Source: an uncultured virus (IMG/VR IMGVR_UViG_2061766007_000215) (taxonomy: Duplodnaviria > Heunggongvirae > Uroviricota > Caudoviricetes). From it: a stretch of DNA of 62,072 nucleotides. Within the stretch, counting starts at the first letter, position 1. Every line of letters begins with the position of its first letter. The stretch lies in IMG/VR virus record IMGVR_UViG_2061766007_000215; one strand, written 5' to 3'. The notes under the pieces were generated by a model. It saw nothing but the letters and a program-made list of their open reading frames with translations, was not told the DNA's origin and did not search any database. This document shows positions 1,185 to 42,482 of the stretch, in pieces. Both the position numbers and the translations under genes were made by a program.

Positions 1185-1992
1185 TATTAAAGACCTTGAA
1201 TTAAGATATTTTTGTAATGGTTATAATGTTCCATATAAGGTAAAAAAAGGTGGAGATTTAAATATAAAACCAATATTAGTAAAAGATTATCCTTATTATG
1301 AAATGGCTAAAAATATCTTAGAAATACCAAAAAACGAAACCAATGATATAAATGTTATTAAAATGTCATATTTAGAGTTTTTAATTAATTATATTATAAA
1401 TACTAATGAAATATATAGTGGATATTTTATTAAAATATGTGAATTATGTTTTGGTTATACAAATGTAGGAATAATAAAACATAATAAAAAGTATTGTATA
1501 GCATTATGTGATGATGAGCAAATAGTAAAGTATATTATAACACCAAAAGAATTTGACGAAATCAGTAAAATTATACTTAATCAAAATGATGCTCATTATG
1601 ATGGTAGATATGTTAATCCCGATGTTAGAGAACTTATGAATGAATATTATAAAGTAAAATATTCTAATACACATTCTCCAAGTTTAGAAGAAAAGAAAGC
1701 ATTTATTACAAGTAAAACAGGGATAGACATTAATACTATTAACGAAATGACATATAGATATTTTGATTTAGTATATAGTTCAAGTGTTAATAATGACCTT
1801 TATTTTGCTCAAAAAATGGTTCAATGTTCATATAAATATGATGTTAAAGAAGATGTTCGTCACCCTTTATTTGAACCACCTAAAGACCCTTATGCAGAAA
1901 TATTTGAAGATACAGGTATTCTTGGTGAAAAGGGTGTTAGTGGAGCAGATAAATTAAACGCACAAAATGCTAAAATGATGCTTGAAAATTAA
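1177..1992 (+). CDS. hypothetical tail-module protein
   Basis: Long ORF; probable GTG start at 1177 after GAAAGCGGTG; followed by a terminator. Confidence 0.55.
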   Translation: MVDIKDLELRYFCNGYNVPYKVKKGGDLNIKPILVKDYPYYEMAKNILEIPKNETNDINVIKMSYLEFLINYIINTNEIYSGYFIKICELCFGYTNVGIIKHNKKYCIALCDDEQIVKYIITPKEFDEISKIILNQNDAHYDGRYVNPDVRELMNEYYKVKYSNTHSPSLEEKKAFITSKTGIDINTINEMTYRYFDLVYSSSVNNDLYFAQKMVQCSYKYDVKEDVRHPLFEPPKDPYAEIFEDTGILGEKGVSGADKLNAQNAKMMLEN

Positions 1993-1998
1993 GTTAAT

Positions 1999-2027
1999 AA
2001 TATGGGAGTTATTTTAACTCCCATATT
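1999..2027 (+). terminator. hairpin, probable intrinsic terminator
   Basis: AATATGGGAGTTA / TAACTCCCATATT inverted repeat. Confidence 0.6.
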
Positions 2028-2120
2028 TGTATAGTATATAAGATAACTTAACAGTTATTTTTATATAATATATTATATAAAAAATATTAGAATAACTTAT
2101 TATTAAGGAGGAAATTCATT

Positions 2121-2480
2121 ATGGCAAGTAAATTTATTCTTGCAGGTGTTGGTGATATTCAGTTATTTGACCAAGGTTCGGGTGAAATAATTGTTACATC
2201 TAAAACACTTACTGATAGTGGAATAAACTTTAGTGTTACCGCAGAAGATATTCGTGGTGGTAAGGCAAATGCTATTCTTGGTAAATACTTCCATGATACT
2301 GCTATGGAACTTACTCTTACGGATGCACTTTTCTCACTAGAGTATCTTGCACTTAACGTTGGTGGTACAATTACGGCAGGTTCTAACGTATTTAAGACAG
2401 AGCCTATTACCACAACTGTAGCAGACACAATTACTGTATCTGAAACACCTCAGATGTTTGGTTCTGTAGGAACTATCGGT
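2121..2480 (+). CDS. major tail (tube) protein, exon 1
   Basis: Strong AAGGAGG RBS and highly expressed codon style. Ends ...GTIG at the U-G splice site and joins in frame to 3742. Confidence 0.75.
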
Positions 2481-2731
2481 TGACGTATACTAGCCGAATT
2501 TACATAGTAATATGTAACTAATAAACCCCTTTAATTGCTAGAAACTCCTAAAGATATACTAACTACAACGTAATGATGAAATAAACATAAGCGTGAATGT
2601 TGCGAAAGCAGAAAAAATAGTATATATAATATATGGCGCAAGCCTAAATATTTTAACAATGGACAATTAGCAACCAAGACCCGAATAGGGTAAGGCTCAA
2701 CGACTATCGAAAACAATAATAAATATAACTC

Positions 2732-2760
2732 TTGACAAAGAGAATAAGATGTGTTATAAT
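2732..2760 (+). promoter_or_regulatory. consensus sigmaA/sigma70 promoter inside the intron
   Basis: TTGACA-17 nt-TATAAT with extended -10 TG. Confidence 0.8.
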
Positions 2761-2901
2761 ATAATAAAAATATTATACTCATACGAAGTGAGTAGAGTAC
2801 ATTTCAAGCGGAATGGAAATAGGGGGCAACCTTTAATTAGGTTGAAGATATAGTCTAAACACTTAGGGAAACCAAGTGAGGAAATTTTAAAGGAATTAAA
2901 T

Positions 2902-3714
2902 ATGGAAAACAATTATTATGTATATCTATATAAAAGAAAAGATAATGGTAATGTATTTTATATAGGTAAAGGCAAAGGTCGCAGAGATAAAGATATTAAT
3001 GGTCATAATAATTTTTGTAAGAATATTGCAAATAAATATGGCTATATAATAGAAAGAGTAAAAGAAAATCTTTTAGAACAAGAAGCATTAGATTTAGAAA
3101 TCCAAACTATTGATTATTATGTTAATACTTTAGGTTATAGTATTGCGTTAAATTATGGTGATGAAAAAAGAGATAGAAATAATGATAAATTTTTATGTAA
3201 TCACACTTTAGGTGGTGATTCTCCAAACGGTCATCATAGAATGTCTTTAAAAGAAAGACAAAAACGTAGTAATAATTGGTTGGGTGATAAAAATATTGCT
3301 AAGAGGAAAGATGTAAGAGAAAAATTAAGTAAACACGCAAAAGAAAATAATTCGTTTGCAAAACCCGAAGTAATTGAAAAAATTACTCAAAAGACTATAG
3401 AAAGATTAAATGACCCAAAAGTAAAACAACAGAGGTCTGAGTTTTATAAAGCCTTTTATAAAACAGAAAGTGGTAAAAAGGCTATAGAAAAAGCACGTAA
3501 AACTAAAAAAGATAAAAATCTTTCTACACATAATTCAATAAAATTATATTGTATTGAAACAAATAAAATATATGATTCTCTTACAAAATTTCAAAAAGAA
3601 CATGGAATAGATAGGCATAAAATTCATAAGTTGTTTAAAGAAACAAATAATGAATATATAGAAGTAATCGACAAATATAATTCATCTTTACTACATATAA
3701 AAATTTCCGTTTAA
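2902..3714 (+). CDS. intron-encoded GIY-YIG homing endonuclease
   Basis: YYVYLY...VFYIGKG..R...E...N motif; basic NUMOD-like C-terminus (IKLYCIETNKIYDS). Confidence 0.85.
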   Translation: MENNYYVYLYKRKDNGNVFYIGKGKGRRDKDINGHNNFCKNIANKYGYIIERVKENLLEQEALDLEIQTIDYYVNTLGYSIALNYGDEKRDRNNDKFLCNHTLGGDSPNGHHRMSLKERQKRSNNWLGDKNIAKRKDVREKLSKHAKENNSFAKPEVIEKITQKTIERLNDPKVKQQRSEFYKAFYKTESGKKAIEKARKTKKDKNLSTHNSIKLYCIETNKIYDSLTKFQKEHGIDRHKIHKLFKETNNEYIEVIDKYNSSLLHIKISV

Positions 3715-3741
3715 GTGTAGCGAACTTAAATAAATATATTG

Positions 3742-4220
3742 TGGTACACAATAGCAGGTAAAGATGAATGGACAAAGATTACATTTGATGCTGAAACAAA
3801 GAGTGCTACAGTATCTAATTTACCTTCGGGTACTTCTGTTTGTGTTAAGTATATTCACACAGATGCGGCGGCTGAACAGTTTATAGTTTCATCTGCATTT
3901 ATTCCCGACCAAGTACACGCAGTTCTTACACTTCCACTCTTTAAGGCAACTGTAGGAGCAGACGCTTCTTATACGTCAAGTTCTAAGGTTGGCGAAGTAC
4001 AGGTTGATATACCTAACTTCCTTCTTGCGGGAGCGCAGGAACTTTCACTTTCTTCATCGGGTGCGGCTACAACTGCTCTTAGTGGTTCTGCACTTGCTTC
4101 TTATACGGGTAATGAAGGTTGTGATGCAGATGGTTACTATGCAGTTCTCAAGCAAGTTATATTTGGTAAGGACGAATGGGCTGATGTAAAGGCTATCGTT
4201 ATTGCTGATTCTGATATTGA
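3742..4220 (+). CDS. major tail (tube) protein, exon 2 (truncated by gap)
   Basis: Begins TGG (WYTIAGKDEW) right after the terminal G; no RBS of its own; in frame with exon 1. Confidence 0.75.
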
Positions 4221-4230: not shown

Positions 4231-4338
4231 GTATTTCCATGATACTGCTATGGAACTTACTCTTACAGATGCGCTTTTCTCACTTGAGTATCTTGCACTT
4301 AACGTTGGTGGTACAATTACGGCAGGTTCTAATGTATT
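4231..4338 (+). repeat. second-allele fragment of the tail tube gene (copy of about 2284-2392)
   Basis: Same peptide YFHDTAMELTLTDALFSLEYL with synonymous changes, bounded by N-gaps. Confidence 0.85.
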
Positions 4339-4538: not shown

Positions 4539-5057
4539 ATGGATTTATGTGAACACGCTTTTTATAAACCCGAAGAAAAATATACACCTAGTTTATATTG
4601 CAAAATAGATGATAAAAGGTGTATATATAGTAAAAGATGTTTAAAAGTAGACCGCTTTATTCCTTTAGAGGGAGAAAAGTGGAGGGAGTGTTATAAATAC
4701 ATTATGGAAAAACGTAAGAATATACCACAGGGTTCTTGTCTAGTACAGACAACAAGACCACATAAGAATGGTAATCTTTATTTGTATGTATTAACAGATG
4801 AAGATAAGATAGAAAGAATATTGTCTGATTTTAAGAAACTTGACCAAGAGTATGTGTATCTTAGAAAGTCTGTAAACGGTAAATATCAGATTTCTTTAGA
4901 GCCTTTTACTATTGAACAAGAGTTTATAAATAAGCCCGAAATAGTAGAAGAAAAAATTGAAACCAAAGAAGATAAGGTTGAATCCAAAGAAATAGAAAGT
5001 AAACCAAAGAAAAGAACTTATAATAAGAAAAAGAAAAATGAAGCAGAGAGAGATTAA
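4539..5057 (+). CDS. hypothetical protein (Cys-rich N-terminus, charged C-terminus)
   Basis: ATG 4539 after GGAG RBS; MDLCEHAF... Confidence 0.6.
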   Translation: MDLCEHAFYKPEEKYTPSLYCKIDDKRCIYSKRCLKVDRFIPLEGEKWRECYKYIMEKRKNIPQGSCLVQTTRPHKNGNLYLYVLTDEDKIERILSDFKKLDQEYVYLRKSVNGKYQISLEPFTIEQEFINKPEIVEEKIETKEDKVESKEIESKPKKRTYNKKKKNEAERD

Positions 5058-5371
5058 ACAAGGTGACGTTTATATGGTTAATTTATCTAATGATACTATT
5101 GACCACGAAACAGGAAAAGTCCGACCTTGTATAATTGTTTCTTGTAATAAGCGTAATGATAATAGTAGTAATATATTTATATTTCCNNNNNNNNNNNNNG
5201 TATAAAAAAGACTATAATTTCTTTACTTATTCAAGCAACACAGTATTATGTGAAGAGGGTAGGTCTATAAGTAAAAAAAGGTTGGAAAGAAAATTAGGTT
5301 CTATTGAACTAAAAGATTTATTAGAAATATTAAAGATAAAAGAATATATTTTTATAGAAAAAAAAATATAG
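5038..5371 (+). CDS. PemK/MazF-like endoribonuclease (gap inside)
   Basis: From ATG 5038: MKQREIKQGDVYMVNL...HETGKVRPCIIVSCN; after the gap: VLCEEGRSISKKRLERKLG. Both halves match the MazF pattern. Confidence 0.75.
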
Positions 5372-6172: not shown

Positions 6173-9100
6173 ATGGATGGAGTAGTTGCATACATCCTTG
6201 GTAAGTCCTATACAAAGAAAAGCCTCATTGGTATAGGGGCATTAGCGGGCGCACCTTGTCAAGTACAAAGTATTAATAAAGTAGATAAAACTACTACTAT
6301 AACTCTTAAATGGGAAGATAATCAAGGTGGAGTTCATACACAAAGTTTTGATATTGAAGATGGTGCAGACGGAGTTAGTGTAAGTAATGCTACAATTAAC
6401 CCAAGTGGTCATTTAATACTTACATTATCAGATGGTAACAATATAGATTGTGGACAAGTATTACCACAATATAGTACAATGCCTTCACCTAGTGCAAGTA
6501 ACGTAGGTCAGATATTACAATATATTGGAAATAATACACCTAATTACACTAATGGATATTTTTATCAATGTATAAATGATGGTGGTGTATATAAATGGAT
6601 AGAAAAACCTGTTCAAGATTCTTATTCAAAAACTGAAATAGGTAATTTATCTAATTTACCCGATAATACAAAAAATGTAGTAGAAAATATTGGGAGTCTT
6701 AAACTTTCAATAGACCAATTACAAGCAAGTAAATTATCTATTTCTGACATAGATAATGCGCTTTCAGATTCAAGTGAAAATCCTGTTCAAAATAAAGTAA
6801 TAAAACTTACTATAGACCAATTAAGGGGTTCTTTACTTGATTTAATTAATGATAAAGAAGATAGATTTAGATATACTACAATGCCTACTGCTGATAGTAT
6901 AAACGTAGGCAAAATAGTAGAATATATAGGTAATACAACCGCTACATATACCAATGGATATTTTTATCAATGTAGATTTGATGGAACTAATTATAGTTGG
7001 GTTCAAAAAAATATACAACCTAGTAATGGTGGTACAGGTGGTGATGGTGTAGTAGATGGTTATTATAATCCTACCGACCATTTATTCTATGAAGAAAATA
7101 CATTTATTAATCCTATAGTTGGTGATAATAATACTCTTTATGTATCACTTGATACTAACTTAGTTTATAGATTTGACGACCCTATATTTGTAAGAGTAGA
7201 TGATAGTGGTGGTGTTGTAAATGGTTATTATAACACATTAGATGGAAAGTTCTATGAAGATTCTACTTATACAACTGAAATAGTAGGTGAATTAGATAAA
7301 ATATATATTTCAGTAGATACAAATATTCAATATAGGTGGGATGGTACTCAATTTATTACAATAAGTAGTAGCGTAACGGTTGACGACCATTTATCTGATA
7401 CAAGTGAAAATCCCGTACAAAACAAGGTAATTAAACTTGCATTAGACCAAATACAAGCGTCAATGCTTACTGCGGAACAAAAAGAAAAACTTATTAAACT
7501 TGAGCCTATCTATCTTATTGGTAGTGGTCTTAATCTTGACCCGATAACAGGGGAACTTAGAGCAAGTGGAATAGATGTTCCTATTGATGACCATTTATCT
7601 AATACATCACTTAATCCTGTACAAAATAAAGTTATAACAGAAAAAATAAATGATTTAGATGCACTTATGGCTACTAAATTATCTGTTAGTGATGTAGATA
7701 ATGCTTTAAGTGGTACAAGTTTAAATCCTGTTCAAAATAAAGTTATTAAACTTACTATTGACCAAATGCAAGGTTCTATCTTAGAAAAGATAAGAAAGAG
7801 ATTAGATGCTCAAGAAAATAATTTTGCTATTTGGGATAATGGTGGGGAAGTAAAAGATAGTGGAATATCAAAAGATATAATTCCTAGTAGTGCAAGTTCA
7901 AGTAATAAACTTTTGGTTAAAAGTGATATAGATAGTGCTTTATCTACTACAAGTGAAAATCCTGTTCAAAATAAAGCAATTACAGTTCCATTACAGGCAT
8001 TACAAGGTTCTTTAATTAATAAGGCAGATAAAGTAAGTAGTGCAACTAATGATAATTTCGCTACGTTAGATGCTAATGGAAATCTTAAAGATAGTGGAAT
8101 AAATAAAAATATTGTTCCAAGTAGTGCTACAAGTTCTAATAAACTTGCTACTATTGCAGATATTCCCGATGAATTAAATGATTTAGATGATGTTGTTATT
8201 ACAACACCTGTTAATAGTCAAATACTTGCATATAATAGTACATCGGGTAAATGGGAAAATAAAACAGGTCAAGAAACTATTGGTGGTTTAGTATTTAAAG
8301 GTTCTATATTATTTGCAAATTTACCTACTTCGGGTATGTCAAATGGTGACGCTTATGATATTAAGGACGCATTTACTACTGACAATAGATTTGAAGAAGG
8401 TAGTGGAATAGCCTGTGGTGCAGGTACAGACGTTGTATGGGTAGCATCTGAAAATAAATGGAATATTTTAACACCATCGGGTGTTTATTCCTTTAATGGT
8501 CGTACAGGTGCAATACAACCTGCTACAAGTGATTATGATGCCAACCAAGTTGATTATAATAATACAACAAGTGGGTTAACGGCTACAGACGTTCAAGCGG
8601 CTATTGATGAAAATGTTTCTAATTTAAGTTCACATATTAGTAATACAAACAATCCTCATAGTGTTACTGCTACACAAGTTGGTCTTGGTAGTGTTGTAAA
8701 TACAGGAGATAGTGCTACACCTGTTAGTGGTGGTACAACCAAATTTACAACAGGTGGTGCTTATACTGAATTAAATAAAAAGGCAGATAAAGTTACAAAT
8801 GCAACTAATGGTAATTTTGCAGGACTTGATGCTAATGGAAATTTAACTGATAGTGGTAAAAAAGCAAGTGATTTTGCTACTGATAATCAAACATTTTCAC
8901 AAGCATCAACAAGAACTAACATTGCAAGTGGAGAATCATTTTCAACTATCTTTGGCAAAATAATGAAATGGTTTGCTGACCTTAAAGATTTAGCATTTAT
9001 TAATAAGCCTAGTAGCGGTCAAACTACAACATTTTTACGTGGTGATGGTACATGGGTTGCACCTTCGGGGGCAAGTTCATGGGATACACCAATAAATTTA

Positions 9101-11003: not shown

Positions 11004-14000
11004 ATGGCTATTGGAAATACTGATTTAGGTATTACTCTTGGTGCTAGAGTTGATACTAGTCAAGCACAAAAAGATATAAATGCTTTTATAAGAAATGATA
11101 GTGAAAATAAAACAAGAAAACTAGTTCTTAATGCAGATATTAATTTAAACAAAATTAATGAAAAATTAGAAAAAGCAATTAATACTAAAGGTTGGACTAA
11201 ACAAATAGAGGATGGTATGCAAAAAATATCTACCTCTATTAGAAGTGGATTATCAAGAACTTTAGAAGATGGCACTGTAGTTAGAGATTTAACAAAAGTC
11301 ACAGAAACATTTAAAAACGAATTTGGTAAAATACAAGAACGTGTAACTGTTTTTAAAGATAGCGCAATGAAACCTATTGCAAGTTCTTTACAAACAGTTA
11401 AAGAAGGTGTTAAAGATGTTTCTACTACAACTTCTACCGTAGTTAAAGAAATAGACAATGTTACTACTAAAGTAACTACACTTGAAAAAGTAATATTAGA
11501 TACTAATAATGAAGAACATAAAATTATAACTACAACTAAAGAGTGGGTAGATGAACAAAATAAATTACACCAAGAAATAAAAGTCACTGATGAAAATGAA
11601 AAACAATTATCAGCAACACAAAAAGTTGTAATTAATGATACAAAAAAAGCCGCCAAAGCCATAAAAGAAATGAGTGAGGCTTTAACAGGAATAAATGCAC
11701 CTACTGACCACAGAACAAGTAAAATTACTTATGTTGATAAAAATGGTGTTAAAACTGTTAAAGAAATGGTAGATGGTATTGATACTCTAATTACTAAAAC
11801 AAGAGAATATACCACAACTCAAGGGGCTTTAGTTAAAGAAACAAAAGTTCTTAATACTATTACAGGTGAAACTAAAGTTCATACAGAGGTAATTAAAAAT
11901 AAAGAACAAGAAATTCAAAAGAGTAAAGAATTAACGGAACAATTAAGAAAAGAAAGATTAGAAAGAGTTGAAACACAAAAACAAATTGATAATGCTTTAG
12001 TATCTACCACATCTACTAAAACTACAGGAAAAATAACACAATTTGGTGACAATAGTGGTAGACAATATGATGCTACTATTACAGAAATAAGAAAAGTAGA
12101 TGAAGCAAATAAAACAGTAATTCAAACGACATATGAATTTATAAATGCACAAAATCAACTTGTAAGACAAACTAGGATTACAGATGAAAATAATAGAAAA
12201 TTAGCGGCTGATACTATAGAAATTAGTAAATCTAATGAAGAGGCTACTAATTCTTCTAAAAAATATAGTAATGCACTTAATAATATTAATACATCTACAA
12301 AACAAACAATTCAACAAACTAAAACATTTAGTCAATCATTAAGTGATGCTATATCAAGACTTGCTAAATATTATGTTGCAAGTTTACCAATACAAGCCTT
12401 TAGAAAAGCAATAACTGAAACGATACAAACCGTTAAAGACTTTGATGATGCTTTAGTCGAATTTCGTAAAGTTTCAGATTTAGCAGGTAATAGTTTAACA
12501 GAATATATTGCTAAACTTGCTAAAATGGGTGAAATTACGGGTTCTACTATGCAAGCAATGGTAGAAGCGGCTACAGAATTTAAAAAATCAAGTTTTGATG
12601 AATCTGATAGTGCAAAATTGGCAAGCATTGCTGAAATGTATCGTAATATTGCCGATGAAGAAATAACTGCGGCTGAATCTGCAAGTTTTATTATTTCTCA
12701 AATGAAAGCATTTAATATTAATGCTAATGAGGCAGAACATATTATAGATGCAGTAAATGAAACTTCAAATAAATTTGCGGTTTCCTCTGCTGATATTGCA
12801 ACTAATTTAAGTAAAATGTCAGCAGTAATGGCGGTAAACAACGTATCTTTTGAACAACAAATAGGTATGCTTGTAGGTGTTACAGAAATAACACGTAATG
12901 CCTCATCTGCTACCCGTGGTCTTACTATGATTGCTAGTAGGTTAACACAGGTTCTTGATGATTCTTCAAGTACAGGTAAAAAACTTACTGATATCTATGA
13001 AAAACTTGATATATCTCTTAAAGATGAAAACGGACAATTAAGAAGTACTTATGATATACTTAAAGATTTATCTGAAAAATGGAATACTTTAAGTGAAAAT
13101 GAACAAAAATATATTTCATTAACAAGTGCAGGTGCAAGACAACAAAATGTTTTCACAAGTTTAATGAAAAATTTTAATTCAGTTATGAAAGCAACCAAAA
13201 CTGCATATGATTCTACAGGTTCAGCCGCTAGAGAAAATGCAAAGGTAATGGACACTATTTCTAAAAAAATGGAAGTATTACGTTCAGAATTTCAACAAAT
13301 TGTTATTGGAAAAGGCGGTTTAACTGAATTATCAAAAGGATTTTTAGATGTTGCAATAGCGGCATTAAAATTTATTGATGCTATAGGCGGTTTAACACCC
13401 TTATTAGTTACATTAGCAGGAATAATAATAACAATTAAAGCCGATGCTATTGTTAATGGATTTATAAAATTTAATAATATAATTATTAATTTAATTCCAA
13501 ATTTACAATCAATGATAGCGGCTTTTATACAAACTACAATAGAAACGGGTAGTTTATCAGCAGGTATAAAAGCATTAGGTATTTCTGCTTCAACTGCACA
13601 AATAGCATTAGGTGCATTAACTGCGGTTGTTTCACTTACAGTAATAGCATTTAAAAAATATCAACAACAACAAGAAGAAAATCATAGAATAGCAAAAGAA
13701 GTATTAAAAGATTATGAGAGTTATTCTGATAGTTTAACTGAAACTCTTAAAAAAATAGAAAATGAGAACGTTAGTAAATCAGAATTAATTGAAATTAATA
13801 AAAAGTTAAATGATTCTTATGATGATGAAAAAGCCCAACTTGAAGATATAAAAAGTTTAAGAGAAGAAAACATTAAATTATTATATAAAGAAGCCCAAGA
13901 AAAAGCAAAAGCAACCACAAGAGAAACTTTATCAGAAACAGAAAAAGCAAAAAGTTATTTAAATTCTAAGGTTAAGAACACAGATTTAGGTGGTTATAAC

Positions 14001-16616
14001 ATAGAAAGAAATACTCTATTAGATACTATGGAGTATACCAAAACAATGACTTCTACTATCGGTAAAAGTCGTGCAGAACAATTAGATATTGTTGGAAAAG
14101 CAATAGATAAATATAATGAAAAAATTTCTAATAATATAGAATTAAGTAAATCAGAATCTTTAACCTTACAACAATTAACTATAACATATAATACACTCAA
14201 AGAAAAATATGATGATGCTACAAATACGGTTAATACTTATAATCAAGCAGAAGAAGTATTAAATCAAACAGAAGAAGAATTTATTAATACTTTAAGAGCA
14301 AAAGCAAATGAACAAGGAATAACCACAGAACTTACTATTGAGGAACAAAATGAATTAATAAATCAATATCATTTAACCGAGGAAGCCATTCAAGAAGTAA
14401 TGGATGCTCAAGAGGGAATGACTCGTTCTGAGGCTATTCAATATTTAGTAGACCAAGCAGATGCGGCAGGTGATTTAGCAAATGCTTCTGAGGATTTAGC
14501 AAAAACACTTGATAATCTTGCTCAATCTTTAGGTATAACTGCTACTGAATTAAAAGATTTAAGAAATAGGTTTGATGATTTAACTCTTAGTAAATTTCTT
14601 TCTCAATTAGCAGAACTTAAACAAACTATTAGTGATACAAGTGCAGTAATAGATAATTTACAAGAGGCTCTTTCTACTGCTCAAACTGCATTAGACGAAT
14701 ATAATAATTCGGGATATTTAACTTTAGATACATTCCAAAGTTTAATGGGTGTATCTGCTCAATATTTAGCGGCATTAGTTAATGATAATGGTCAATTAGA
14801 AATCAATCAAACTACTCTTGGTAATCTCGTTGAACAAATTAAAATTGCTAAAATTGAAGAATTGGCTCATGCGGCGGCATTAGAAATAGCGGCATTAAAT
14901 AATCAAGAAGCGGCTAATACCGCTAATGCGGCAAGTGTTTCTGTTAGTGCGGCAGGTAATTCTTTTGCAGAAGCAGGAAGTAAGGCGGCAAAAGCGGCAG
15001 AAGGTGTTGCTATATTTAACGCTGAGTTATCTAAAGCCACAGGTGGAACTTTAGGTGATTTTTCGGGTTCTGAAAAAGCAATTATTGATAAATATAGAAA
15101 TCTTGCAAGAGAAATTTCTACTCTTACTGTTAATACTACAAAAGCAGGTAATGCGGCTAAATCAGCAGGTAGAGCAGGTGCAGGTGCGGCTAAACAAGCA
15201 AAAGATGCGACAAAAGACCTCAATAGCGAATTAGAAAAAACAAAATCTAATTATGAAAAAGTTATAAGTTGGATTGGTAAACAGTACGACAAAGAAATTG
15301 ATGGTATAAGAAAAGCAAAAGATGAAGCCGTTAAAGCCGCAGAAGAAGAGATAAGGGCTAAAGAAAAAGAAAAAGACGAAGCATTAGGCTATATTGAGGA
15401 AGAAATAAAAGCACTTGAAAAACAAAAAGATGCCCGTGAAAAATATTGGGATAAACAAATTGACGCACTTAAAAAGGCAAATAAAGAAAAGAAAGATGCA
15501 TTAGAGTTACAAGAAAAACTTGATGCACTTGAAAAGGCTAAAAACACTAAAGTTAAAATATATAAAGAGGGTCAAGGCTTTGTATATGACGTTGATAGAA
15601 CCGAAGTGGCAAAAGCCCAAAAAGAACTTGACGAATACTTATCTGAAAAGGCATATGAAGAAAAATTAGCACGTTTAGAGGCTCTTAAAGATGCCGAAAT
15701 GGAAAACTTTGATAAGCGTATTGACGCTTATAATAATTTTAAGGATAAGGTTGAAAAAGCATACGAAGAAGAAATTTCAGCGTTAGAAGAACATAAGAAT
15801 AACTTAGAAGAACAATATGATGCTGAAATAGAAATGTATGAAAATTATAAGCAACAATTTGAAGATATGGTCAATGCTTATGAAGAACAACAAATGAAAT
15901 TGTTGTTTACTCAATTAACAGGCATTGACGCAGAAAATAAGAATTGGATGACAAGGCTTGATAATCTTCAACATTTTGTAGATGAATATAACCGACTACA
16001 AGCACAACTCGACACAGGAAATTATGCAGGTGGCGGTGGTGGTGCTGACACAGGCGGTGGCGGTGGTGGTGCTGACACAGGCGGTACTACTACAACAAGA
16101 ACTGTTACTAATCAAGACACACCCGATAATCAGTATTCACCTGTTCAAAATAGTAAAAGTACCCTTAGTAATTCAACAGGTAAAACAGGTTATGTTCCTA
16201 CATCAGTAACAAATGCTTTAGGCACAAATTCAAGCGGTAGAGTTAAATCTCACGCAAGCGGTGTAGGTTCTGTTAAATCAGATGAAATAGCAATAGTAGG
16301 TGAAAATCCTAACAAAGAAATAGTTATAGGTTCTAAAATTAATAATGGGGAACTTATGTCACTTGAAAAAGGAACAGGAGTAGTAAATGCTGACAGTTCT
16401 AAAACTTTAGCAAGTATGCTTAATGAAGTAGGTCAATTTGGTTCAAGTGGATTTGGGAGTGGAAATGGAACTCTCAATAATAATATTAACAATGATAGTC
16501 TTGTTGTTAATGGTGTAACAATTCAAGGTTCTAATATTAAAGACCCCGAAACATTTGTTAATGGGTTACTTAATCTTAAAGCAGAAGCGTTACAACGTGC
16601 ATATAGACACCGTTAA
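11004..16616 (+). CDS. tail tape measure protein
   Basis: 1870 aa; TP901-type core (FDDALVEFRKVSD...IIDAVNETSNKFAVSS...LKDENGQLRSTYDILKDL), coiled coils, C-terminal HASG...GE. Confidence 0.92.
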   Translation: MAIGNTDLGITLGARVDTSQAQKDINAFIRNDSENKTRKLVLNADINLNKINEKLEKAINTKGWTKQIEDGMQKISTSIRSGLSRTLEDGTVVRDLTKVTETFKNEFGKIQERVTVFKDSAMKPIASSLQTVKEGVKDVSTTTSTVVKEIDNVTTKVTTLEKVILDTNNEEHKIITTTKEWVDEQNKLHQEIKVTDENEKQLSATQKVVINDTKKAAKAIKEMSEALTGINAPTDHRTSKITYVDKNGVKTVKEMVDGIDTLITKTREYTTTQGALVKETKVLNTITGETKVHTEVIKNKEQEIQKSKELTEQLRKERLERVETQKQIDNALVSTTSTKTTGKITQFGDNSGRQYDATITEIRKVDEANKTVIQTTYEFINAQNQLVRQTRITDENNRKLAADTIEISKSNEEATNSSKKYSNALNNINTSTKQTIQQTKTFSQSLSDAISRLAKYYVASLPIQAFRKAITETIQTVKDFDDALVEFRKVSDLAGNSLTEYIAKLAKMGEITGSTMQAMVEAATEFKKSSFDESDSAKLASIAEMYRNIADEEITAAESASFIISQMKAFNINANEAEHIIDAVNETSNKFAVSSADIATNLSKMSAVMAVNNVSFEQQIGMLVGVTEITRNASSATRGLTMIASRLTQVLDDSSSTGKKLTDIYEKLDISLKDENGQLRSTYDILKDLSEKWNTLSENEQKYISLTSAGARQQNVFTSLMKNFNSVMKATKTAYDSTGSAARENAKVMDTISKKMEVLRSEFQQIVIGKGGLTELSKGFLDVAIAALKFIDAIGGLTPLLVTLAGIIITIKADAIVNGFIKFNNIIINLIPNLQSMIAAFIQTTIETGSLSAGIKALGISASTAQIALGALTAVVSLTVIAFKKYQQQQEENHRIAKEVLKDYESYSDSLTETLKKIENENVSKSELIEINKKLNDSYDDEKAQLEDIKSLREENIKLLYKEAQEKAKATTRETLSETEKAKSYLNSKVKNTDLGGYNIERNTLLDTMEYTKTMTSTIGKSRAEQLDIVGKAIDKYNEKISNNIELSKSESLTLQQLTITYNTLKEKYDDATNTVNTYNQAEEVLNQTEEEFINTLRAKANEQGITTELTIEEQNELINQYHLTEEAIQEVMDAQEGMTRSEAIQYLVDQADAAGDLANASEDLAKTLDNLAQSLGITATELKDLRNRFDDLTLSKFLSQLAELKQTISDTSAVIDNLQEALSTAQTALDEYNNSGYLTLDTFQSLMGVSAQYLAALVNDNGQLEINQTTLGNLVEQIKIAKIEELAHAAALEIAALNNQEAANTANAASVSVSAAGNSFAEAGSKAAKAAEGVAIFNAELSKATGGTLGDFSGSEKAIIDKYRNLAREISTLTVNTTKAGNAAKSAGRAGAGAAKQAKDATKDLNSELEKTKSNYEKVISWIGKQYDKEIDGIRKAKDEAVKAAEEEIRAKEKEKDEALGYIEEEIKALEKQKDAREKYWDKQIDALKKANKEKKDALELQEKLDALEKAKNTKVKIYKEGQGFVYDVDRTEVAKAQKELDEYLSEKAYEEKLARLEALKDAEMENFDKRIDAYNNFKDKVEKAYEEEISALEEHKNNLEEQYDAEIEMYENYKQQFEDMVNAYEEQQMKLLFTQLTGIDAENKNWMTRLDNLQHFVDEYNRLQAQLDTGNYAGGGGGADTGGGGGGADTGGTTTTRTVTNQDTPDNQYSPVQNSKSTLSNSTGKTGYVPTSVTNALGTNSSGRVKSHASGVGSVKSDEIAIVGENPNKEIVIGSKINNGELMSLEKGTGVVNADSSKTLASMLNEVGQFGSSGFGSGNGTLNNNINNDSLVVNGVTIQGSNIKDPETFVNGLLNLKAEALQRAYRHR
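16032..16085 (+). repeat. 27-bp in-frame tandem duplication (Gly-rich linker)
   Basis: GGCGGTGGTGGTGCTGACACAGGCGGT x2. Confidence 0.9.
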
Positions 16617-25897: not shown

Positions 25898-27481
25898 ATG
25901 AGCAAAATCGGTCATGCAAGCCTTGGTAGTAATGGCAAGACTACAGGTGATAAATCGGGTGACCAAGGAAGGGAAGTTGTTACAACTTCTTGGATGAAGA
26001 AAAATTGGAGTTATGTTTTAAGAGCAAAGGATTCCAATATAGCAGAATTAATGTCTAAGGCTTGTGAAGCGGGTTGTGCTAATCAATGCGTGGGATATAA
26101 TCAAACCCGTAGAAACAGTTTAAAAGCACAAGCAAAATTAGTTGGAATGGATTTGTCACGTATTAAAACAGATTGTGATTGTGATTGTAGTTCATTTATG
26201 ACAGTATGTGCTGAGTGTGCAGGTATTCCTATTCCTTATAATGGAAGTAATGCCCCCACCACAAGTTCGATGAAGGTGGCGTTTATGAATACAGGATATT
26301 TTGATTTACTTACAGATAAAAAATTTCTCGATTCTGATAAGTACCTCAAAAGGGGCGATATATTAGTAGCCGTTGGTCAACACGCAATTATGTGTCTTGA
26401 GAACGGGGTTATGGCAGATATTTCACAATTAGCAAATCAACAACAAGTACCTATTAAAGCCGTTGATTTATCACAATTTAATGTGGTAACTGATTATAAA
26501 CAAATGGCTAATGAGATAAAATATATTTTCTTGCGTATAGGTAGGCGTGGTTCAACCGATGGTAATATTGTAGAAGATACAGGATTTAAGAAACATATAG
26601 ATAATTGTATTGCTAATGGAATACAAAATTTGGGTTTGTACTTTTATGACCAAAGCATTTCAGAACAAGAAGCAATAGAACAGGCTAATTGGATTGTAGA
26701 TAAATTAAAATATTATAATATTACTAAAAATATTACACTACCAATTTACATTGATTCAGAATCAAGTCCTAATCATAATGGTCGTGCAGATAATATATCT
26801 AAAGAACAACGTACTAAGAATATTATAGCATTTTGTGATAGAATTAAATTGTTAGGATTTAAAGAAGGGGTTTATTCGGCTGATAGTTGGTATAAGTCAA
26901 TGTTAGATTTTGACCAAATAAAAAATTATAATATTTGGTGTGCAAGATATTCAACTGAGAAACCAACCATACCTAAGTACGATATTTGGCAATATGGCTC
27001 AGAACAGTTTATTTGGGCGCAAAAACCGATTGATGTGAATTGGATATACAATTTATCTACTAATATCCAAAAACCCGAAAATGGGGCTAATAAGAGCCAA
27101 ATTAAGACTATTAATAATAAAGTAAAAGTAACTGATTATCTTAATATAAGAAATCAACCGTTATCTAATGCACCTATAGTTGGTAAATTATATCTTAATG
27201 ACCAAGTGCCTATATTTGGTTATGTCCATGATTGGTATATGATAAGCACAACTATGGATAAATGGGTTAGTGCTAAATATGTATTTACTAATACAGGTAA
27301 AACTACCGCAAATCTAAATTATAGAGCAGGTGTTGGAACAAATAATAAATCACTAGGTATTTATGAGAAAGGTACAGTTGTTAAACTACTTAATAAAGCA
27401 GAATTTAATGGCGATACTTGGTATTTATGTTTAGATAATAAAGATAGATTTGGTTGGTGTAGTGGGAAGTATATAGAATGA
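25898..27481 (+). CDS. endolysin: NlpC/CHAP-like + GH25 muramidase + 2 SH3b
   Basis: DCSSF...GDILV...H; AVDLSQFN...YIDSE...IWCARY...IWQY...DVN; LNIR and LNYR SH3b repeats. Confidence 0.88.
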   Translation: MSKIGHASLGSNGKTTGDKSGDQGREVVTTSWMKKNWSYVLRAKDSNIAELMSKACEAGCANQCVGYNQTRRNSLKAQAKLVGMDLSRIKTDCDCDCSSFMTVCAECAGIPIPYNGSNAPTTSSMKVAFMNTGYFDLLTDKKFLDSDKYLKRGDILVAVGQHAIMCLENGVMADISQLANQQQVPIKAVDLSQFNVVTDYKQMANEIKYIFLRIGRRGSTDGNIVEDTGFKKHIDNCIANGIQNLGLYFYDQSISEQEAIEQANWIVDKLKYYNITKNITLPIYIDSESSPNHNGRADNISKEQRTKNIIAFCDRIKLLGFKEGVYSADSWYKSMLDFDQIKNYNIWCARYSTEKPTIPKYDIWQYGSEQFIWAQKPIDVNWIYNLSTNIQKPENGANKSQIKTINNKVKVTDYLNIRNQPLSNAPIVGKLYLNDQVPIFGYVHDWYMISTTMDKWVSAKYVFTNTGKTTANLNYRAGVGTNNKSLGIYEKGTVVKLLNKAEFNGDTWYLCLDNKDRFGWCSGKYIE

Positions 27482-27732
27482 TAGTATATCGTTATGAAAA
27501 ATCAGATAAAGGTGGAGTATTTTTTACATTAAATGGAATTAATAGAAATAGTAATGTATGTTCTAATGATAATTGGATAAGTTGTTGTGAAAGTGAAGAA
27601 TTATTAAAACAATGGTTTTCAGAAAGAAACATAGATACATCTGATTGTCATATAGTTATTTATAATATTCCAAAAGAAGTAATAAAGAAAACAAGAACAC
27701 ATTTGATTTTTCCAAAAGAATATTTATATTAA
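27478..27732 (+). CDS. hypothetical protein (allele-specific)
   Basis: 84 aa overlapping the endolysin stop; missing after the second endolysin allele. Confidence 0.55.
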   Translation: MIVYRYEKSDKGGVFFTLNGINRNSNVCSNDNWISCCESEELLKQWFSERNIDTSDCHIVIYNIPKEVIKKTRTHLIFPKEYLY

Positions 27733-27741
27733 TAAAAAATT

Positions 27742-27780
27742 AAAGGGAAAAGATATATATTTTATCTTTTCCCTTTTTTT
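27742..27780. terminator. bidirectional intrinsic terminator
   Basis: AAAGGGAAAAGATA / TATCTTTTCCCTTTTTTT; near-identical copy at 32571-32608. Confidence 0.75.
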
Positions 27781-27797
27781 AGTTTNNNNNNNNNNGT

Positions 27798-27983
27798 AGA
27801 CATTCAAGGATTGAAAGTCTACAGCAAGGGACAGACGATAGGCTTAAAGATGAAAATGGTAAAAATCGTAAATATCCGATTGAGCAGATTCAAGTAATGG
27901 CCCATCATTCAGATTTATCCACTACTGCCGGATATCTTAAAAATCATGACGAGGATACGATTAATGAAATGTTTGGATTTTAA
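27798..27983 (+). CDS. tyrosine recombinase, C-terminal fragment
   Basis: RHSRIE...IQVMAHHSDLSTTAGYLK (box II His and catalytic Tyr); missing from the ORF track. Confidence 0.75.
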   Translation, partial: RHSRIESLQQGTDDRLKDENGKNRKYPIEQIQVMAHHSDLSTTAGYLKNHDEDTINEMFGF

Positions 27984-28740
27984 AAACTTAATAGTTTTGT
28001 AAGGATTAAGTCTGACTATAAATCCTAGTTTTTAATTGAACCTATCACACATTAAGGTTGTAGCGTGTTGCCCGATGTACACGGTCAGTTCGTGATTTTG
28101 GGTGTGATATATACAGAGCCTTTAAGGGCATTAATAAATGAACGAAAGTCGTTAGAGTCTTTCAGCAGAAGCGGTATCTAGTGGGATTTAATTTGCGGAT
28201 TAAATCATTCATCAAAAGTCTAAAACCGCTAATATCAATTCTGTACTTATAATGGGTAGACTTGCCTATCTATATGATAGTGGTAATTTTAGGGCGACAA
28301 GTCAGATTAGTTTGAGTCGGGGCGACTAATCAAATTATATAGGGGATTCCTGTTGGCGAGAAGTGGTAAGGCAACCATAAGTATTCCAAATAAATGCAGG
28401 TGGGAACGTGTCGTAGACAAGGAGAAGGACAGGGTACGACATTATGTGAGTGACGGGAACGTTAAAATTATGAATATTAAAGATTTACACCTTAATACAT
28501 ATAAATACCATATAAAAGTTAGCAGATTTACAGATATATATACTAACTCTTTATGGTATGCGGTTAAGGCATATATACGAAAATATATCTAATGGCAATA
28601 ACGCTTTTTGCGTTTCAGTAAAACAACAAGACCTTGTTTTCGGTGCAAGGTTAAAAAAACCGACAAACTTAGCCCTTTACGGGCAGTTATAAAGTCAAGA
28701 AAAAGGCTAACTGACTTTGTTTCGGTTGGCTTTTTTCAAT
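27983..28740 (+). ncRNA. putative structured ncRNA cluster, copy X (contiguous)
   Basis: About 750 nt with no credible ORF, dense hairpins and pseudoknots, modules conserved with copy Y. Confidence 0.65.
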
Positions 28741-28754
28741 ATTAAGGAGTAATT

Positions 28755-29107
28755 ATGGCAAAGAAAATAGAAAAAGTCCGTTTATGTAAAGGACATAATT
28801 CTCCTTTGCTTAATTGCTTAGGAGATATGAGAGAATCCGAGTTTTATACAAGTTGGTCTAAATTTACTGATGGTAAAGTTCCATATTGTAAAACTTGTGT
28901 AAATAAAATATATGAATATTATTTAAGAGAAACGGGTTCTGATAAAACTGCATTATATTTTACTTTAATGAAATTAGATATTCCCTTTATCGAGGAAGTA
29001 TATAATAGTATTGCAGAAAAGAAAACTGTAACTATTAGTACATATATCACAACCTTACAAAGAAAAACTACCTGTCAAGATATTTGGAGTGATTTTACGG
29101 CTACAGA
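28755..29107 (+). CDS. Zn-finger protein, possible terminase small subunit (truncated)
   Basis: FY.S....DGKVPYCKTC...LDIPF resembles SPbeta-like small terminase N-termini (from memory, not searched). Confidence 0.4.
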
Positions 29108-29255
29108 NNNNNNNNNNGTCCTACAGGTGTTAATTTTTATGATTTAATGGGTATTCCATCTGCTTGTAGAAATTGTGGTAACCACCCTGTTAATGGCGGT
29201 AGTGGTATTTGTCATTGTACATTAGGATTACAAACATTTTATTAAGGAGATAATT

Positions 29256-29588
29256 ATGAACGAAATAATAGCATTTCTTTCAGAAAATTGGTACGTAATA
29301 GTAATGGTGTTGGTCTTGGCGTTTGCTATTTATTACACGATAACGAATAAACAAAAAGCAAAAGAATGGTTACGTTGGTGTGTAACTGTAGCAGAAAATG
29401 AACTTGGAAAAAGTACAGGTCAACTTAAATTGCGTATGGTGTATGATATGTTTATAGAAAAGTTTCCTGTATTTTCTAGTATATTGCCCTTTAACATTTT
29501 TTCAAAGTGGGTCGATTTAGCCCTTGAATGGATGAGAGAACAAATAGATAAAAATGAAGCAATTAAGGCATTTACAGAAAATAATTAA
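29256..29588 (+). CDS. holin, allele 3
   Basis: Homologous to 25460-25786. Confidence 0.75.
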   Translation: MNEIIAFLSENWYVIVMVLVLAFAIYYTITNKQKAKEWLRWCVTVAENELGKSTGQLKLRMVYDMFIEKFPVFSSILPFNIFSKWVDLALEWMREQIDKNEAIKAFTENN

Positions 29589-29721
29589 AGAATTAATTAA
29601 ATAATCCGATATAAATAAGTACGGAATAGGGTCGCTCCCGATAAGTCGCATAGTCCAACGATTTTCCGTACTTTTTTTAAAATTTGGATTTTTTAATATT
29701 TTAATATAAAGGACACATATT

Positions 29722-30813
29722 ATGAGTATTAAAGCAAGCAATAAAGAAATAATTAAAGAAGATGAAATATGGACAGTATATGTTCATATTATACCAAAAG
29801 AAATATCAAAATACGATTATAATAAATATTATGTAGGTATTACAAGTAGACCTGTTAAATATAGGTGGAATAATGGTAATCATTATAAAGAACAATTATT
29901 TTATAATGCAATTAAAAAATATGGTTGGGATAATATAATACATTATATAGTTGCTACACATCTTTTAGAAGATGAAGCAAAAGAATTAGAAAAAACATTA
30001 ATAAATAAATTAAAATGTAATATATATAAAGATAAGTATGGTTATAACTCTACAGATGGTGGTGATGGTGCATATATATTAGGTTATGTTCCATCAGAAA
30101 ACGCACGATTAAAAATGAGTAAAAATCATTGTGACGACAATGGTAAAAAAAGAATATATCAATTTGATATAAATGGTAAATACATAAAATCTTATAGTAG
30201 TGCAATAGAGGCATCTCGTTTATTGGGATTTAAAAGTCATCATTTTAGTAAATATATAAAAAATCAAGAACTATATCGTGGATATTTGTGGGGTTATGAA
30301 TCTGATATTGAATTAATTGATAATATTCCTGTATTAAAATATAGATATAAAGAAAAAATAAAAAAGATTTCTTGTTCTAAAAAAATATATCAATTTGACC
30401 TTAATGGTAATTATATAACAACTTATTTAAATGTAAAAGACGCAGTAAATAAAGCCAATATAACATATAGTGTTGGTGAATGTATTAAAAAACACAAACC
30501 CTTTTGTGGATATTTATGGGGATTTGATAAAAATATCACATTAATTAATAATATACCTAAATTAAATTATACTTATAAAAGAATTATACCTAAAAGATGT
30601 AAACCTATATATATGTTTGATTTTTATGGAAGATTCATTAAAAAATATGATACGGCTATTGAAGCAGGAAAAGAAAATAATATTAGTAATCAATATATTA
30701 CTAGGTCGGCTAGAATATTAAATACAAGTGGCGGGTATTATTGGAGATATGAAAACGGTATAAGTTTTGATGAAAACAATAATCCTATTTTATTAATAGA
30801 GAATATAAAATAA
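29722..30813 (+). CDS. free-standing GIY-YIG homing endonuclease with NUMOD1-like repeats
   Basis: WTVYVH...KYYVGIT...RW..G...GYNST.GGDG; three IYQFD.NG.YI..Y repeats. Confidence 0.85.
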   Translation: MSIKASNKEIIKEDEIWTVYVHIIPKEISKYDYNKYYVGITSRPVKYRWNNGNHYKEQLFYNAIKKYGWDNIIHYIVATHLLEDEAKELEKTLINKLKCNIYKDKYGYNSTDGGDGAYILGYVPSENARLKMSKNHCDDNGKKRIYQFDINGKYIKSYSSAIEASRLLGFKSHHFSKYIKNQELYRGYLWGYESDIELIDNIPVLKYRYKEKIKKISCSKKIYQFDLNGNYITTYLNVKDAVNKANITYSVGECIKKHKPFCGYLWGFDKNITLINNIPKLNYTYKRIIPKRCKPIYMFDFYGRFIKKYDTAIEAGKENNISNQYITRSARILNTSGGYYWRYENGISFDENNNPILLIENIK

Positions 30814-30981
30814 TGTTAATTTTGTTGGATAAATTAAAAGATTTTAAAGCCACTCTAAAATTAGGGTGGCTTTGTTTTTTAGGTAAACCAAATAAAGATA
30901 TAGATAAAATATATTTTAATTTTATTAATAAAAATAAANNNNNNNNNNTAATATTTATGATAATTAAGGGGATGATAAAAC

Positions 30982-34354: not shown

Positions 34355-34783
34355 TTATATCCTTTCATAATTATAACCTTTTTCTGTGGTATAATAAATA
34401 TTTTGTATTCCTCTGTCTTTTAATGCTTTAGTACAACTTGGACAGGGCTTACACATTCTTGTTTTACCACAACTCTCACGATATACAAATATTGATACTT
34501 TCGACCAATCTAATTCTAAGTCTTTTGTATCAATAAGACATTTCATCTCACTATGTAAACAAGGCAAATGAGTGTCAGCAGAATAAGACCTATTATCGAG
34601 TTGCAAGTGTTCTCTGTATTTGTTATACTTGTACTGTATGGGATTCGTCTTTCTGCTATTCCACCCATTTGCGATTACCTTGTTTTTGTATACTAATACT
34701 GAACCAATATGAACTTTTTTCTTGTTATAGTCGCTGAACTTTGAAGCGTTCTTTGCTAATTTAAAAAACTTATTTATATTCAT
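34355..34783 (-). CDS. cytidine/dCMP deaminase-family protein
   Basis: IGSVLV...GWN...LHSE...PCPSC Zn motif. Confidence 0.8.
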   Translation of the reverse strand: MNINKFFKLAKNASKFSDYNKKKVHIGSVLVYKNKVIANGWNSRKTNPIQYKYNKYREHLQLDNRSYSADTHLPCLHSEMKCLIDTKDLELDWSKVSIFVYRESCGKTRMCKPCPSCTKALKDRGIQNIYYTTEKGYNYERI

Positions 34784-34789
34784 AGATAT

Positions 34790-34818
34790 ATTATATCATA
34801 TAAATACCTATTTGTCAA
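34790..34818 (-). promoter_or_regulatory. consensus sigmaA promoter
   Basis: TTGACA-17-TATAAT; ATG 6 nt downstream. Confidence 0.8.
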
Positions 34819-35036
34819 GAGTTTATTTCATCTCCATCATCTGATTCAAGTTCGACCAAAAAGTTTTCTCCGTTATCTATTGGTAAATTGGTATCTTGAA
34901 CATAATTTATAAATGCGGGTAACAACACATAATCATCTTTATCTACTCTGCCTTTTATATAATTATTCCAAAACAACCAATCTGTACTTGTAAGTTCTTT
35001 ATCTAATTCATTTTGATTTATTTGAAAGATTAACAT
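34815..35036 (-). CDS. hypothetical protein
   Basis: Allele at 42483-42683. Confidence 0.6.
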   Translation of the reverse strand: MLIFQINQNELDKELTSTDWLFWNNYIKGRVDKDDYVLLPAFINYVQDTNLPIDNGENFLVELESDDGDEINS

Positions 35037-35051
35037 TATATCACCTATGTT

Positions 35052-35867: not shown

Positions 35868-35875
35868 ATAATTTC

Positions 35876-38306: not shown

Positions 38307-38328
38307 TTAAAATTTGCTCCTAATCGTT

Positions 38329-38532
38329 TTATTTTTCGTTTACCCACTTAACCGCTTTTGTAAAATCCATTAAATTATCATCTACTTCAAGGTAGGGGGC
38401 TTGTTGTATTCCTTTTGATAACATAAGGTCTACATCGTTACATATTTCAAAATCAATATTTTTACTTTGTAATTTCTTTTCAAGAACATTACATTTTGGA
38501 CAATTTGTTGAATATAATATTATTTTAGCCAT
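38329..38532 (-). CDS. glutaredoxin/NrdH-like redoxin
   Basis: LYSTNCPKC...APYL. Confidence 0.85.
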   Translation of the reverse strand: MAKIILYSTNCPKCNVLEKKLQSKNIDFEICNDVDLMLSKGIQQAPYLEVDDNLMDFTKAVKWVNEK

Positions 38533-38726: not shown

Positions 38727-38745
38727 ATAAATTACCTCCTTTCTT

Positions 38746-40408: not shown

Positions 40409-40418
40409 NNNNNNNNNN

Positions 40419-40805: not shown

Positions 40806-40809
40806 TTAT

Positions 40810-40998: not shown

Positions 40999-41007
40999 AT
41001 TTTCACC

Positions 41008-41550: not shown

Positions 41551-41551
41551 C

Positions 41552-42445: not shown

Positions 42446-42451
42446 GTGTAT

Positions 42452-42480: not shown

Positions 42481-42482
42481 GT

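Follow-up and report, generated by a model that had tools for sequence, protein, structure and literature searches.

How a phage obtains its tail-tube protein is the question raised by a locus in which the gene for this protein is interrupted, after 120 codons, by an in-frame stop codon and a long intervening sequence. The locus belongs to an uncultured virus (IMG/VR IMGVR_UViG_2061766007_000215), and the whole 62,072-nucleotide stretch of its DNA that was analysed is referred to here as the window. Exon 1 of the tail-tube (major tail) gene occupies 2121..2480 on the plus strand and comprises codons 1-120, with its last letter being the U of the wobble pair in P1, and exon 2 occupies 3742..4220 on the same strand, where it is ended by an assembly gap after 4220. 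Exon 1 matched phrog_2729, a virion structural protein, in PHROGs with an E-value of 1.6e-17, and the intron-less homologue P0066 was 92.5% identical to exon 1 (residues 1-120) and 89.4% identical to exon 2. The homologues, which are about 360 aa in all, extend beyond exon 2 into a C-terminal Ig-like (Big_2) domain, detected in P0066 with an E-value of 5.7e-9, and the missing end of exon 2 is contained in the nearest record, G001. The identity of the gene as that of the major tail protein, which had been put forward in a sequence-only reading of this DNA, was borne out by a fold comparison made on P0066, not on the spliced product: the P0066 model (pLDDT 77.6) matched solved tail-tube structures with Foldseek E-values of 5.8e-10 to 3e-9, including 8ygm, 9jgi, and 8xkn, and also matched lambda gpV, T5 pb6, and YSD1. 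Furthermore, a relative that is 33% identical to the L002 protein is annotated as 'major tail protein' in Enterocloster phage PMBT24, which has the same gene order, and the tape measure gene of the window lies downstream at 11004-16616, in the order found in PMBT24. A gap-broken ORF at 5038-5371 was also seen, by position and by eye, to resemble a PMBT24 tail-module gene that stands in the same place and is annotated 'mRNA interferase'.

No second intact copy of the tail-tube gene was found in the window and, therefore, any tube protein would need to be made from an mRNA that has been spliced. The segment 4232-4338 was considered as a real second gene copy and rejected; it is a variant of exon-1 codons 56-90 that lies between N gaps and has five third-position changes, and it is probably a strain allele that was included by scaffolding. 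The window resembles a mosaic made up of strain variants, in which the genes for endolysin, dCMP deaminase, anaerobic ribonucleotide reductase, exonuclease V, and DNA polymerase are each present twice or in overlapping pieces (25898-32565, 34355-42463, 36348-44919, 39185-47072, and 47733-53988). The hosts indicated by genome bins (Coprobacillaceae 93%, Clostridia, Treponema, and Erysipelotrichaceae) were inconsistent and were not trusted.

The intervening sequence (2481..3741, plus strand; 1261 nt, phase 0), which has the in-frame TGA first and a G last, was identified as a group I intron of the IA2 type. The sequence-only reading had placed the end of exon 1 after ATCGGT at 2480, with a U·G wobble in P1, and this pair could be read directly as U2480·G2493. 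The TGA with which the intron had been said to open (2481-2483) is in frame after the 120-codon ORF and gives a 120-aa stop product, and the proposed intron end at G3741 is supported by P10, in which the TACTA-side strand at 2488-2492 pairs with 3742-3746 through five pairs, one of which is G·U. Because an open frame is obtained with 39 different U|...G pairs in a range of ±30 nt, this pattern combined with the frame is a weak criterion and, hence, the boundaries rest on comparisons with relatives. The pair 2480/3741 was singled out by colinearity with homologues, by the pairing of P1, P10, and P9.0, and by natural DNA that joins 2480 to 3742, as described below. As for the colinearity check that had been suggested, Gly120 and Trp121 are adjacent in the intron-less homologues, which run straight through the GTIG/WYT junction. 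Codons 120 and 121 were adjacent in 116 of the 125 loci compared, a count that includes duplicates across collections and from which one further row, an artefact of the intron-bearing L144, was dropped. Two other phages, L001 and L144, carry introns of 1227 and 1262 nt, respectively, at the same site, and these also read GGT|TGA...TG|TGG.

A local scan with Rfam RF00028 gave a match at 2456-2878 (E 1.6e-7; 37.3 bits against a gathering score of 50; model positions 1-253) with long insertions in P5 and P7.1, and the intron was missed in whole-window Rfam scans both at the gathering threshold and by E-value. A scan of viral contigs with a pattern of the 3' end found L001's contig as its sole match. 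The major tail protein of this gut phage family is easily mis-annotated, because gene callers split the gene into a 120-aa fragment and a spurious fragment started at a TTG, and the Rfam threshold misses the intron. Read-through of the TGA and separate translation of exon 2 from the TTG at 3739 were also considered and rejected, as there is no ribosome-binding site upstream and the homologues form one chain.

The 5' end of the structure (2476..2497, plus strand) contains P1 (2476-2481/2492-2497, six pairs) and the P10 strand of the guide (2488-2492). The U·G pair of P1 is kept in L001 and L144. The guide and the exon were found to co-vary in L001, which has an extra C-G pair in P1 and, by eye, a longer P10. 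Two of the five P10 pairs were found to be broken in L144 in the direct register, with pairing being regained, by eye, only with a bulged A. The region that follows (2500..2696, plus strand) contains P2 (2500-2506/2511-2517), the 5' strand of P3 (2526-2531), P4 (2536-2541/2667-2672), P5 (2546-2548/2661-2663, with a long extension), and P6 and P6a (2674-2695). The catalytic core (2700..2856, plus strand) contains P7 (2702-2706/2851-2855), with G2702-C2855, a bulged C2701, and A2700-U2856, the extended P7.1 (approximately 2707-2796), P7.2 (2800-2805/2810-2815), the 3' strand of P3 (2821-2826), and P8 (2827-2832/2839-2844). P7.1, in which a base of two pairs carries a long variable extension, is the weakest part of the structure model. 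Next to the core (2857..2888, plus strand) are the 5' strand of P9.0 (2857-2858, with 3739-3740), P9 with a GAAA loop (2860-2878), and the 5' strand of P9.1 (2880-2888), which forms nine pairs with 3700-3708 and closes the ORF loop; P9.1 differs in L001, where ten pairs were seen by eye. The 3' end (3700..3741, plus strand) provides the 3' strand of P9.1, the P9.2 hairpin (3710-3716/3724-3730), the 3' strand of P9.0, and the terminal G.

The P3-P7 pseudoknot core and the P4-P6 domain are, thus, present. P7 is invariant across the introns of the window, L144, and L001, and its G-C pair is the guanosine-binding pair by its established role. Compared with L001, 10 compensatory changes were found, in P2 (3), P3 (1), P4 (1), P5 (1), P6 (1), and P6a (2), with the rest in P9, as counted against this one divergent partner without a significance test and before the registers of P7.2 and P8 were revised. 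The intron core has 72-83% similarity to introns found in phages of Clostridium, Bacillus, Staphylococcus, and Enterocloster, one of which introns is annotated 'Group I catalytic intron'. Regarding the subgroup, the intron has P7.1, P7.2 (six pairs), P9.0, P9.1, and P9.2, and the IA2 type is defined by the hairpins P7.1 and P7.2 and by P9.0, P9.1, and P9.2 (PMC4227781). An IStron, which would have an IS element (TnpA/TnpB) downstream of P9.2, was considered and rejected, as there are only 11 nt between P9.2 and the terminal G and the sole ORF, which is GIY-YIG-like, is in P9.1. Taken together, the pairing from P1 to P10, the compensatory changes, and the same-site introns of L001 and L144 uphold the group I assignment made in the sequence-only reading, and the identity of the intron and both of its splice sites are almost certainly correct.

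The intron contains a 270-codon ORF (2902..3714, plus strand) for a putative GIY-YIG-type homing endonuclease, which is looped out of the P9.1 stem and has its last codons overlapping P9.1 and P9.2. AAGGAA at 2890..2895 (plus strand), which ends 6 nt before the ATG, is its likely ribosome-binding site. The encoded protein has an N-terminal nuclease domain, helical DNA-binding modules, and a C-terminal helix-turn-helix-like module. The hallmarks of GIY-YIG nucleases are described as two Tyr-Gly strand motifs 10-11 residues apart together with catalytic Arg, Glu, and Asn (PMC2988022). In the ORF, Y8, Y20, G22, R28, H35, E66, and N100 are invariant in all 21 of the aligned homologues, and Y8, Y20, G22, R28, E66, and N100 appear to correspond to residues of I-TevI, with the first motif being a Y-V-Y variant. 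In a fold search of the PDB, the first dozen ranks were GIY-YIG-type domains including I-TevI, with E-values of 4e-3 to 8e-2 and none at or below 0.001, and the top match was PD-T4-3, itself a GIY-YIG protein. Matches in BFVD were GIY-YIG or intron endonucleases (E 1.7e-11 to 2e-8), the Atlas features score was 0.96, with a TM of 0.69 to a LEM-3-like GIY-YIG cluster, and the match to the DNA-binding domain of I-TevI (1i3j) was weak (E 0.026). The ORF itself had no family match in Pfam or NCBIfam and no clear family in PHROGs, and the Pfam GIY-YIG family PF01541 was found in 2 of the 21 homologues (best E 1.9e-4). A dN/dS of 0.165 was obtained against L144 and of 0.475 against L001, indicating that the ORF is under purifying selection. 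Homologues of the ORF numbered 25, including 10 that are 268-271 aa long with identities of 64-93%; among viral contigs, a single-sequence scan gave no confirmed relative, and an alignment-based scan gave L001's contig as the only close one among 49. The endonuclease is probably active or was so recently. Two further ORFs resembling homing endonucleases were observed in the window, namely a NUMOD1/GIY-YIG-like one at 29722-30813, directly preceding the second gene for endolysin, and a LAGLIDADG-like one at 35052-35867.

A perfect consensus of a sigma70/sigmaA-type promoter, TTGACA-N17-TATAAT with an extended -10 TG (2732..2760, plus strand), lies in the P7.1 extension and precedes the start of the endonuclease by 141 nt. 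Such 12/12 promoters were observed 7 times in the 62-kb window against an expectation of 0.22, a number reached in 0 of 100 shuffles, and weaker promoter-like sites in the region were at chance level (15 found, 12.7 expected). The six further perfect sites are at 23388, 34790, 42452, 47098, 50347, and 55489, with five of them being on the minus-strand DNA-metabolism arm, which holds the genes for dCMP deaminase, exonuclease V, NrdD, and DNA polymerase, and four of these five look like two duplicated pairs. The intron promoter is kept in L144 and is degenerate in L001; as the L001 ORF is nevertheless intact, the promoter is not required for the element. We lean, by a small degree, towards the view that the P7.1 promoter may drive the endonuclease early.

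As an answer to the question raised by the locus, we consider it very probable that an IA2 group I intron between tail-tube codons 120 and 121 would be removed, likely by self-splicing, to give a protein of about 360 aa, and that it is likely to home by means of its own GIY-YIG-type endonuclease. Ribosomes would stop at the opening TGA, which would leave the core free to fold. Guanosine bound in P7 would then attack after U2480, and exon 1 would subsequently attack after G3741, aligned by P10, with the two transesterifications restoring the frame as in established group I chemistry. The endonuclease would probably be produced not mainly from the tail transcript but from the P7.1 promoter, which is of the type preceding the DNA-metabolism genes. 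It would appear during DNA replication and, in a co-infecting relative, would cleave the tail allele that lacks the intron, in accordance with the model of I-TevI (PMC2988022), and repair of the cut allele would copy the intron in. The internal promoter would, in our own reasoning, time the nuclease to DNA replication, as the tail transcript would not. The endonuclease ORF and the internal promoter, which were not mentioned in the sequence-only reading, would make the intron mobile.

To follow the locus in natural populations, 21 sequencing runs were listed, none of them of RNA, and eight were examined, all as DNA contigs, so that the joins in them show intron-less DNA and not splicing. Contigs of X5 and X10 (two of the eight runs) join 2480 directly to 3742, where the joint may slide by 2 letters; X1 and X6 have an intron-less allele whose junction letters are different, the join in X8 is more divergent, and X7, X9, and X11 had no join at the 2480/3742 site. 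Single contigs span both intron ends in X1 (0 differences), which is probably the source sample of the window, and in X5, which is from another study; in X6, where the intron is covered, a single further letter at the 3' end would have been needed for it to count as bridged. Intron-bearing and intron-less alleles coexist in X1, X5, X6, and X10, and record G001 has both together in one scaffold. The best-matching runs are recorded as bovine gut metagenomes. The same-site intron was found in 3 of the 95 distinct alleles, and relatives that are 85-93% identical were found to be without it. In the exon-2 tree, at least two gains or losses are needed, with L001 being sister to the intron-less L104 (100/98). 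The exon-1 tree, in which the window and L144 are sisters (95/86), has 210 columns and may have the last codon of the window misplaced, and the exon-2 tree was preferred. The intron label did not cluster significantly on the trees, with values as low being reached in 54 and 500 of 500 shuffles. The patchiness of the tree is as compatible with repeated loss as with homing, and the distribution would be consistent with mobility without proving it.

A reading that is compatible with the self-splicing homing intron, not exclusive of it, is that the intron serves as a weapon, with the early nuclease cutting the essential tail gene of intron-less co-infecting relatives and with alleles that have a GGA glycine and a changed exon-2 start being escape alleles. 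In X1, the contig with the intron has a depth of 31 and no mismatches and stands beside an intron-less allele of similar depth (30.7) that differs right at the junction, and the same junction letters occur in X6 and G001; interference competition has been described for PhiPA3, as summarised in PMC11878797. However, contig depth does not equal genome share and X1 is probably the window's own source, and GGA is also common in distant alleles without known exposure (16 of 83 junction strings). Moreover, intron-less alleles with an intact junction are present in X5 and X10, and in X10 such an allele has a depth of 35.7 vs 4-6.5 for the intron pieces, on the same understanding of contig depth. L144 has the intron before the same W-V-S exon-2 start and, therefore, the variant exon-2 start does not block the intron. 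We regard this reading as possible, though rather doubtful.

It would also be conceivable that the intron splices and that its endonuclease is useless for homing, the intron being inherited vertically with occasional loss and the promoter being incidental. The presence of the intron in so few of the distinct alleles would fit this, as would the pairing of the window with L144 in the exon-1 tree, which vertical descent predicts, the degenerate promoter of L001, and the relatives of the intron core, whose P7.1 loops are short and different. We nevertheless think it unlikely, in view of an ORF that is full length, has all the catalytic-type residues and a low dN/dS against L144, and has numerous homologues, 10 of them of nearly the same length, and in view of a 12/12 promoter that is so rarely expected by chance in 62 kb.

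The splicing might instead act as a regulatory switch that gates tail assembly by the GTP level or translation, or the 120-aa product might have a role of its own. The dependence of the tube protein on splicing in a window with no second intact copy would favour such a switch, and the idea of a 'molecular switch' has been raised for phage introns (PMC11878797). However, most alleles are without the intron, including those of close relatives, and phage group I introns are described as generally starting with a stop codon, which keeps ribosomes off the core (PMC2504315, PMC3984707) and is tied to intron folding (PMC2504315). The 120-aa fragment would, furthermore, be unlikely to fold into a tube subunit, because the stop falls within a strand-rich, well-modelled inserted domain of the homologue. 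We judge a regulatory role to be quite improbable. Finally, an assembly artefact, as might be suspected in a gapped scaffold with duplicated variant segments including the exon-1 piece at 4232-4338, is ruled out by the single contigs bridging both junctions in X1 and X5, and with the independent same-site copies in L001 and L144, which have compensatory changes, an artefact or a dead insertion inactivating the gene deserves next to no credence.

Among known systems, the td intron of T4 is also of the IA2 type, and Staphylococcus phage Twort has three introns in one gene of 142 codons. The sequence-only reading had held that an intron in a tail structural gene is less common than in other genes. 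This was supported in part, as each of the 45 introns in a survey of Bastillevirinae interrupted a gene for DNA metabolism or terminase (PMC11878797), but examples from structural genes, those of the tail tube included, had already been published (PMC11878797, PMC2504315, PMC3706429), and phage introns are described as favouring DNA-metabolism or structural genes (PMC4227781). Tail-tube gene introns have been reported for Twort orf142 (PMC11878797) and for Bacillus cereus-group prophages (PMC2504315), and spliced introns for tail and capsid genes of mycobacteriophages (PMC3706429). A search of titles and abstract openings, not targeted at gut phages, found no published work on tail introns of this phage family.

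Twort resembles the window in having group I introns in the tail-tube gene of a Firmicute-type phage (PMC11878797), and the window core matches introns of Twort-like staphylococcal phages at 71-74%. It differs in being a contractile-tailed member of Herelleviridae with exon skipping, whereas the window has one intron with a GIY-YIG-type ORF in a siphophage-type tube gene of about 360 aa. In the B. cereus-group prophages, which also have tape-measure introns, the tail-tube gene likewise contains an in-frame group I intron, and a stop codon is located at the beginning of this intron or close to it. Clostridium phage c-st, which is described among the relatives of that intron (PMC2504315), gave the best match to the window core (82.6%). 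According to that source, however, the tail-tube intron of the prophages is without an endonuclease, with only term-IVS1 and TMP-IVS3a having one, and the host gene is of a different family (PMC2504315). T4 td/I-TevI has a GIY-YIG endonuclease with a modular DNA-binding tail that is expressed from a promoter inside the intron, as would be the case in the window; in contrast, T4 is described as having middle and late promoters inside introns of early and middle genes and no early ones for the endonuclease genes (PMC2988022), whereas the window has a consensus host-type promoter in a structural-gene intron, where the promoter lies in P7.1 and the ORF in the loop of P9.1. The mycobacteriophages BAKA (tail) and LittleE (capsid) also have introns in structural genes, one of them high-copy, with splicing shown by RT-PCR, but the class of these introns is given as uncertain, that of BAKA is described without an endonuclease, and that of LittleE has a LAGLIDADG-like ORF on the opposite strand (PMC3706429).

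Introns were also observed at other sites of the tail-tube family. In 18 of the 95 alleles, group I-type introns are located further upstream, near codons 46, 47, and 54, as labelled by hand and, in two cases, by 3' ends only. Exon 1 must end in G, one base before the U, to keep the frame in 12 of the 14 tested; one was canonical and one ambiguous. An exhaustive check of 11 showed that the alternative in-frame U|...G pairs present within 15 nt would insert or delete codons or put intron-derived residues in place of conserved ones, and the P10 register also fits a G-ending exon by eye. These G-ending-exon introns at codons 46/54, which contain no transposon or IS element, are L082:3124-3557, L083:3160-3568, L087:2625-3000, L089:1132-1518 and 1544-3000, L095:1517-3000, L134:983-2499, L149:995-2500, L154:2657-3038, L157:1027-2500, L158:715-1077, and L166:2657-3052. 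L166 has no U·G pair, as its guide places an A opposite the U; in L087-L089, two introns flank a very short middle exon. The upstream introns of L083 and L158 are ORF-less, and the long forms encode a DUF559/MTES_1575-type nuclease (two of two scanned). Such a G|U 5' splice site is rare and has been described for group B IStrons and one Turicibacter intron (PMC4227781). ORF-less group I introns are present after codon 47 in L065 (2508-2907) and L101 (373-766), with that of L101 being canonical and that of L065 ambiguous, having either a canonical splice with one residue lost or a G-ending exon. The window's own intron has a canonical 5' splice site.

In Enterococcus phage ECP3 (KJ801817.2; L183:1951-2337), an intron that is not annotated was also observed, close to where the tail-tube gene ends. 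Its core is 83% identical to that of L083, and a G-ending exon 1 gives a C-terminus that matches intron-less homologues of Listeria and Staphylococcus phages; this type of core match is common to many Enterococcus phages. Downstream of the tail gene, L083 also has another group I intron (7134-7427), which, with 52.8 bits, exceeds the Rfam threshold. In addition, Staphylococcus phage genes in L184 (1801-3583) and L185 (1790-3473), SbcD-like and 'tail lysin', respectively, are split by a related core with an ORF annotated as a transposase, and these elements are possibly IStron-like.

It may be speculated, as a tentative extension that we would not ourselves expect to hold in full, that the intron took up the phage's replication-arm promoter in P7.1 and, thus, would obtain an early nuclease from a late gene for use against intron-less gut siblings, the reverse of the situation in T4, with the junction variants representing escape. 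The tail-tube gene would then be a four-site battleground of introns that also shelters transposon-free G|U introns with a different nuclease family. The findings do not overturn current views. The intron of the window represents an endonuclease-bearing addition to the short list of introns in high-copy structural genes, and its internal consensus promoter provides a testable answer to the problem of how the homing nuclease of a late gene may be timed with DNA replication, for which natural intron-bearing, intron-less, and junction-variant alleles all exist.
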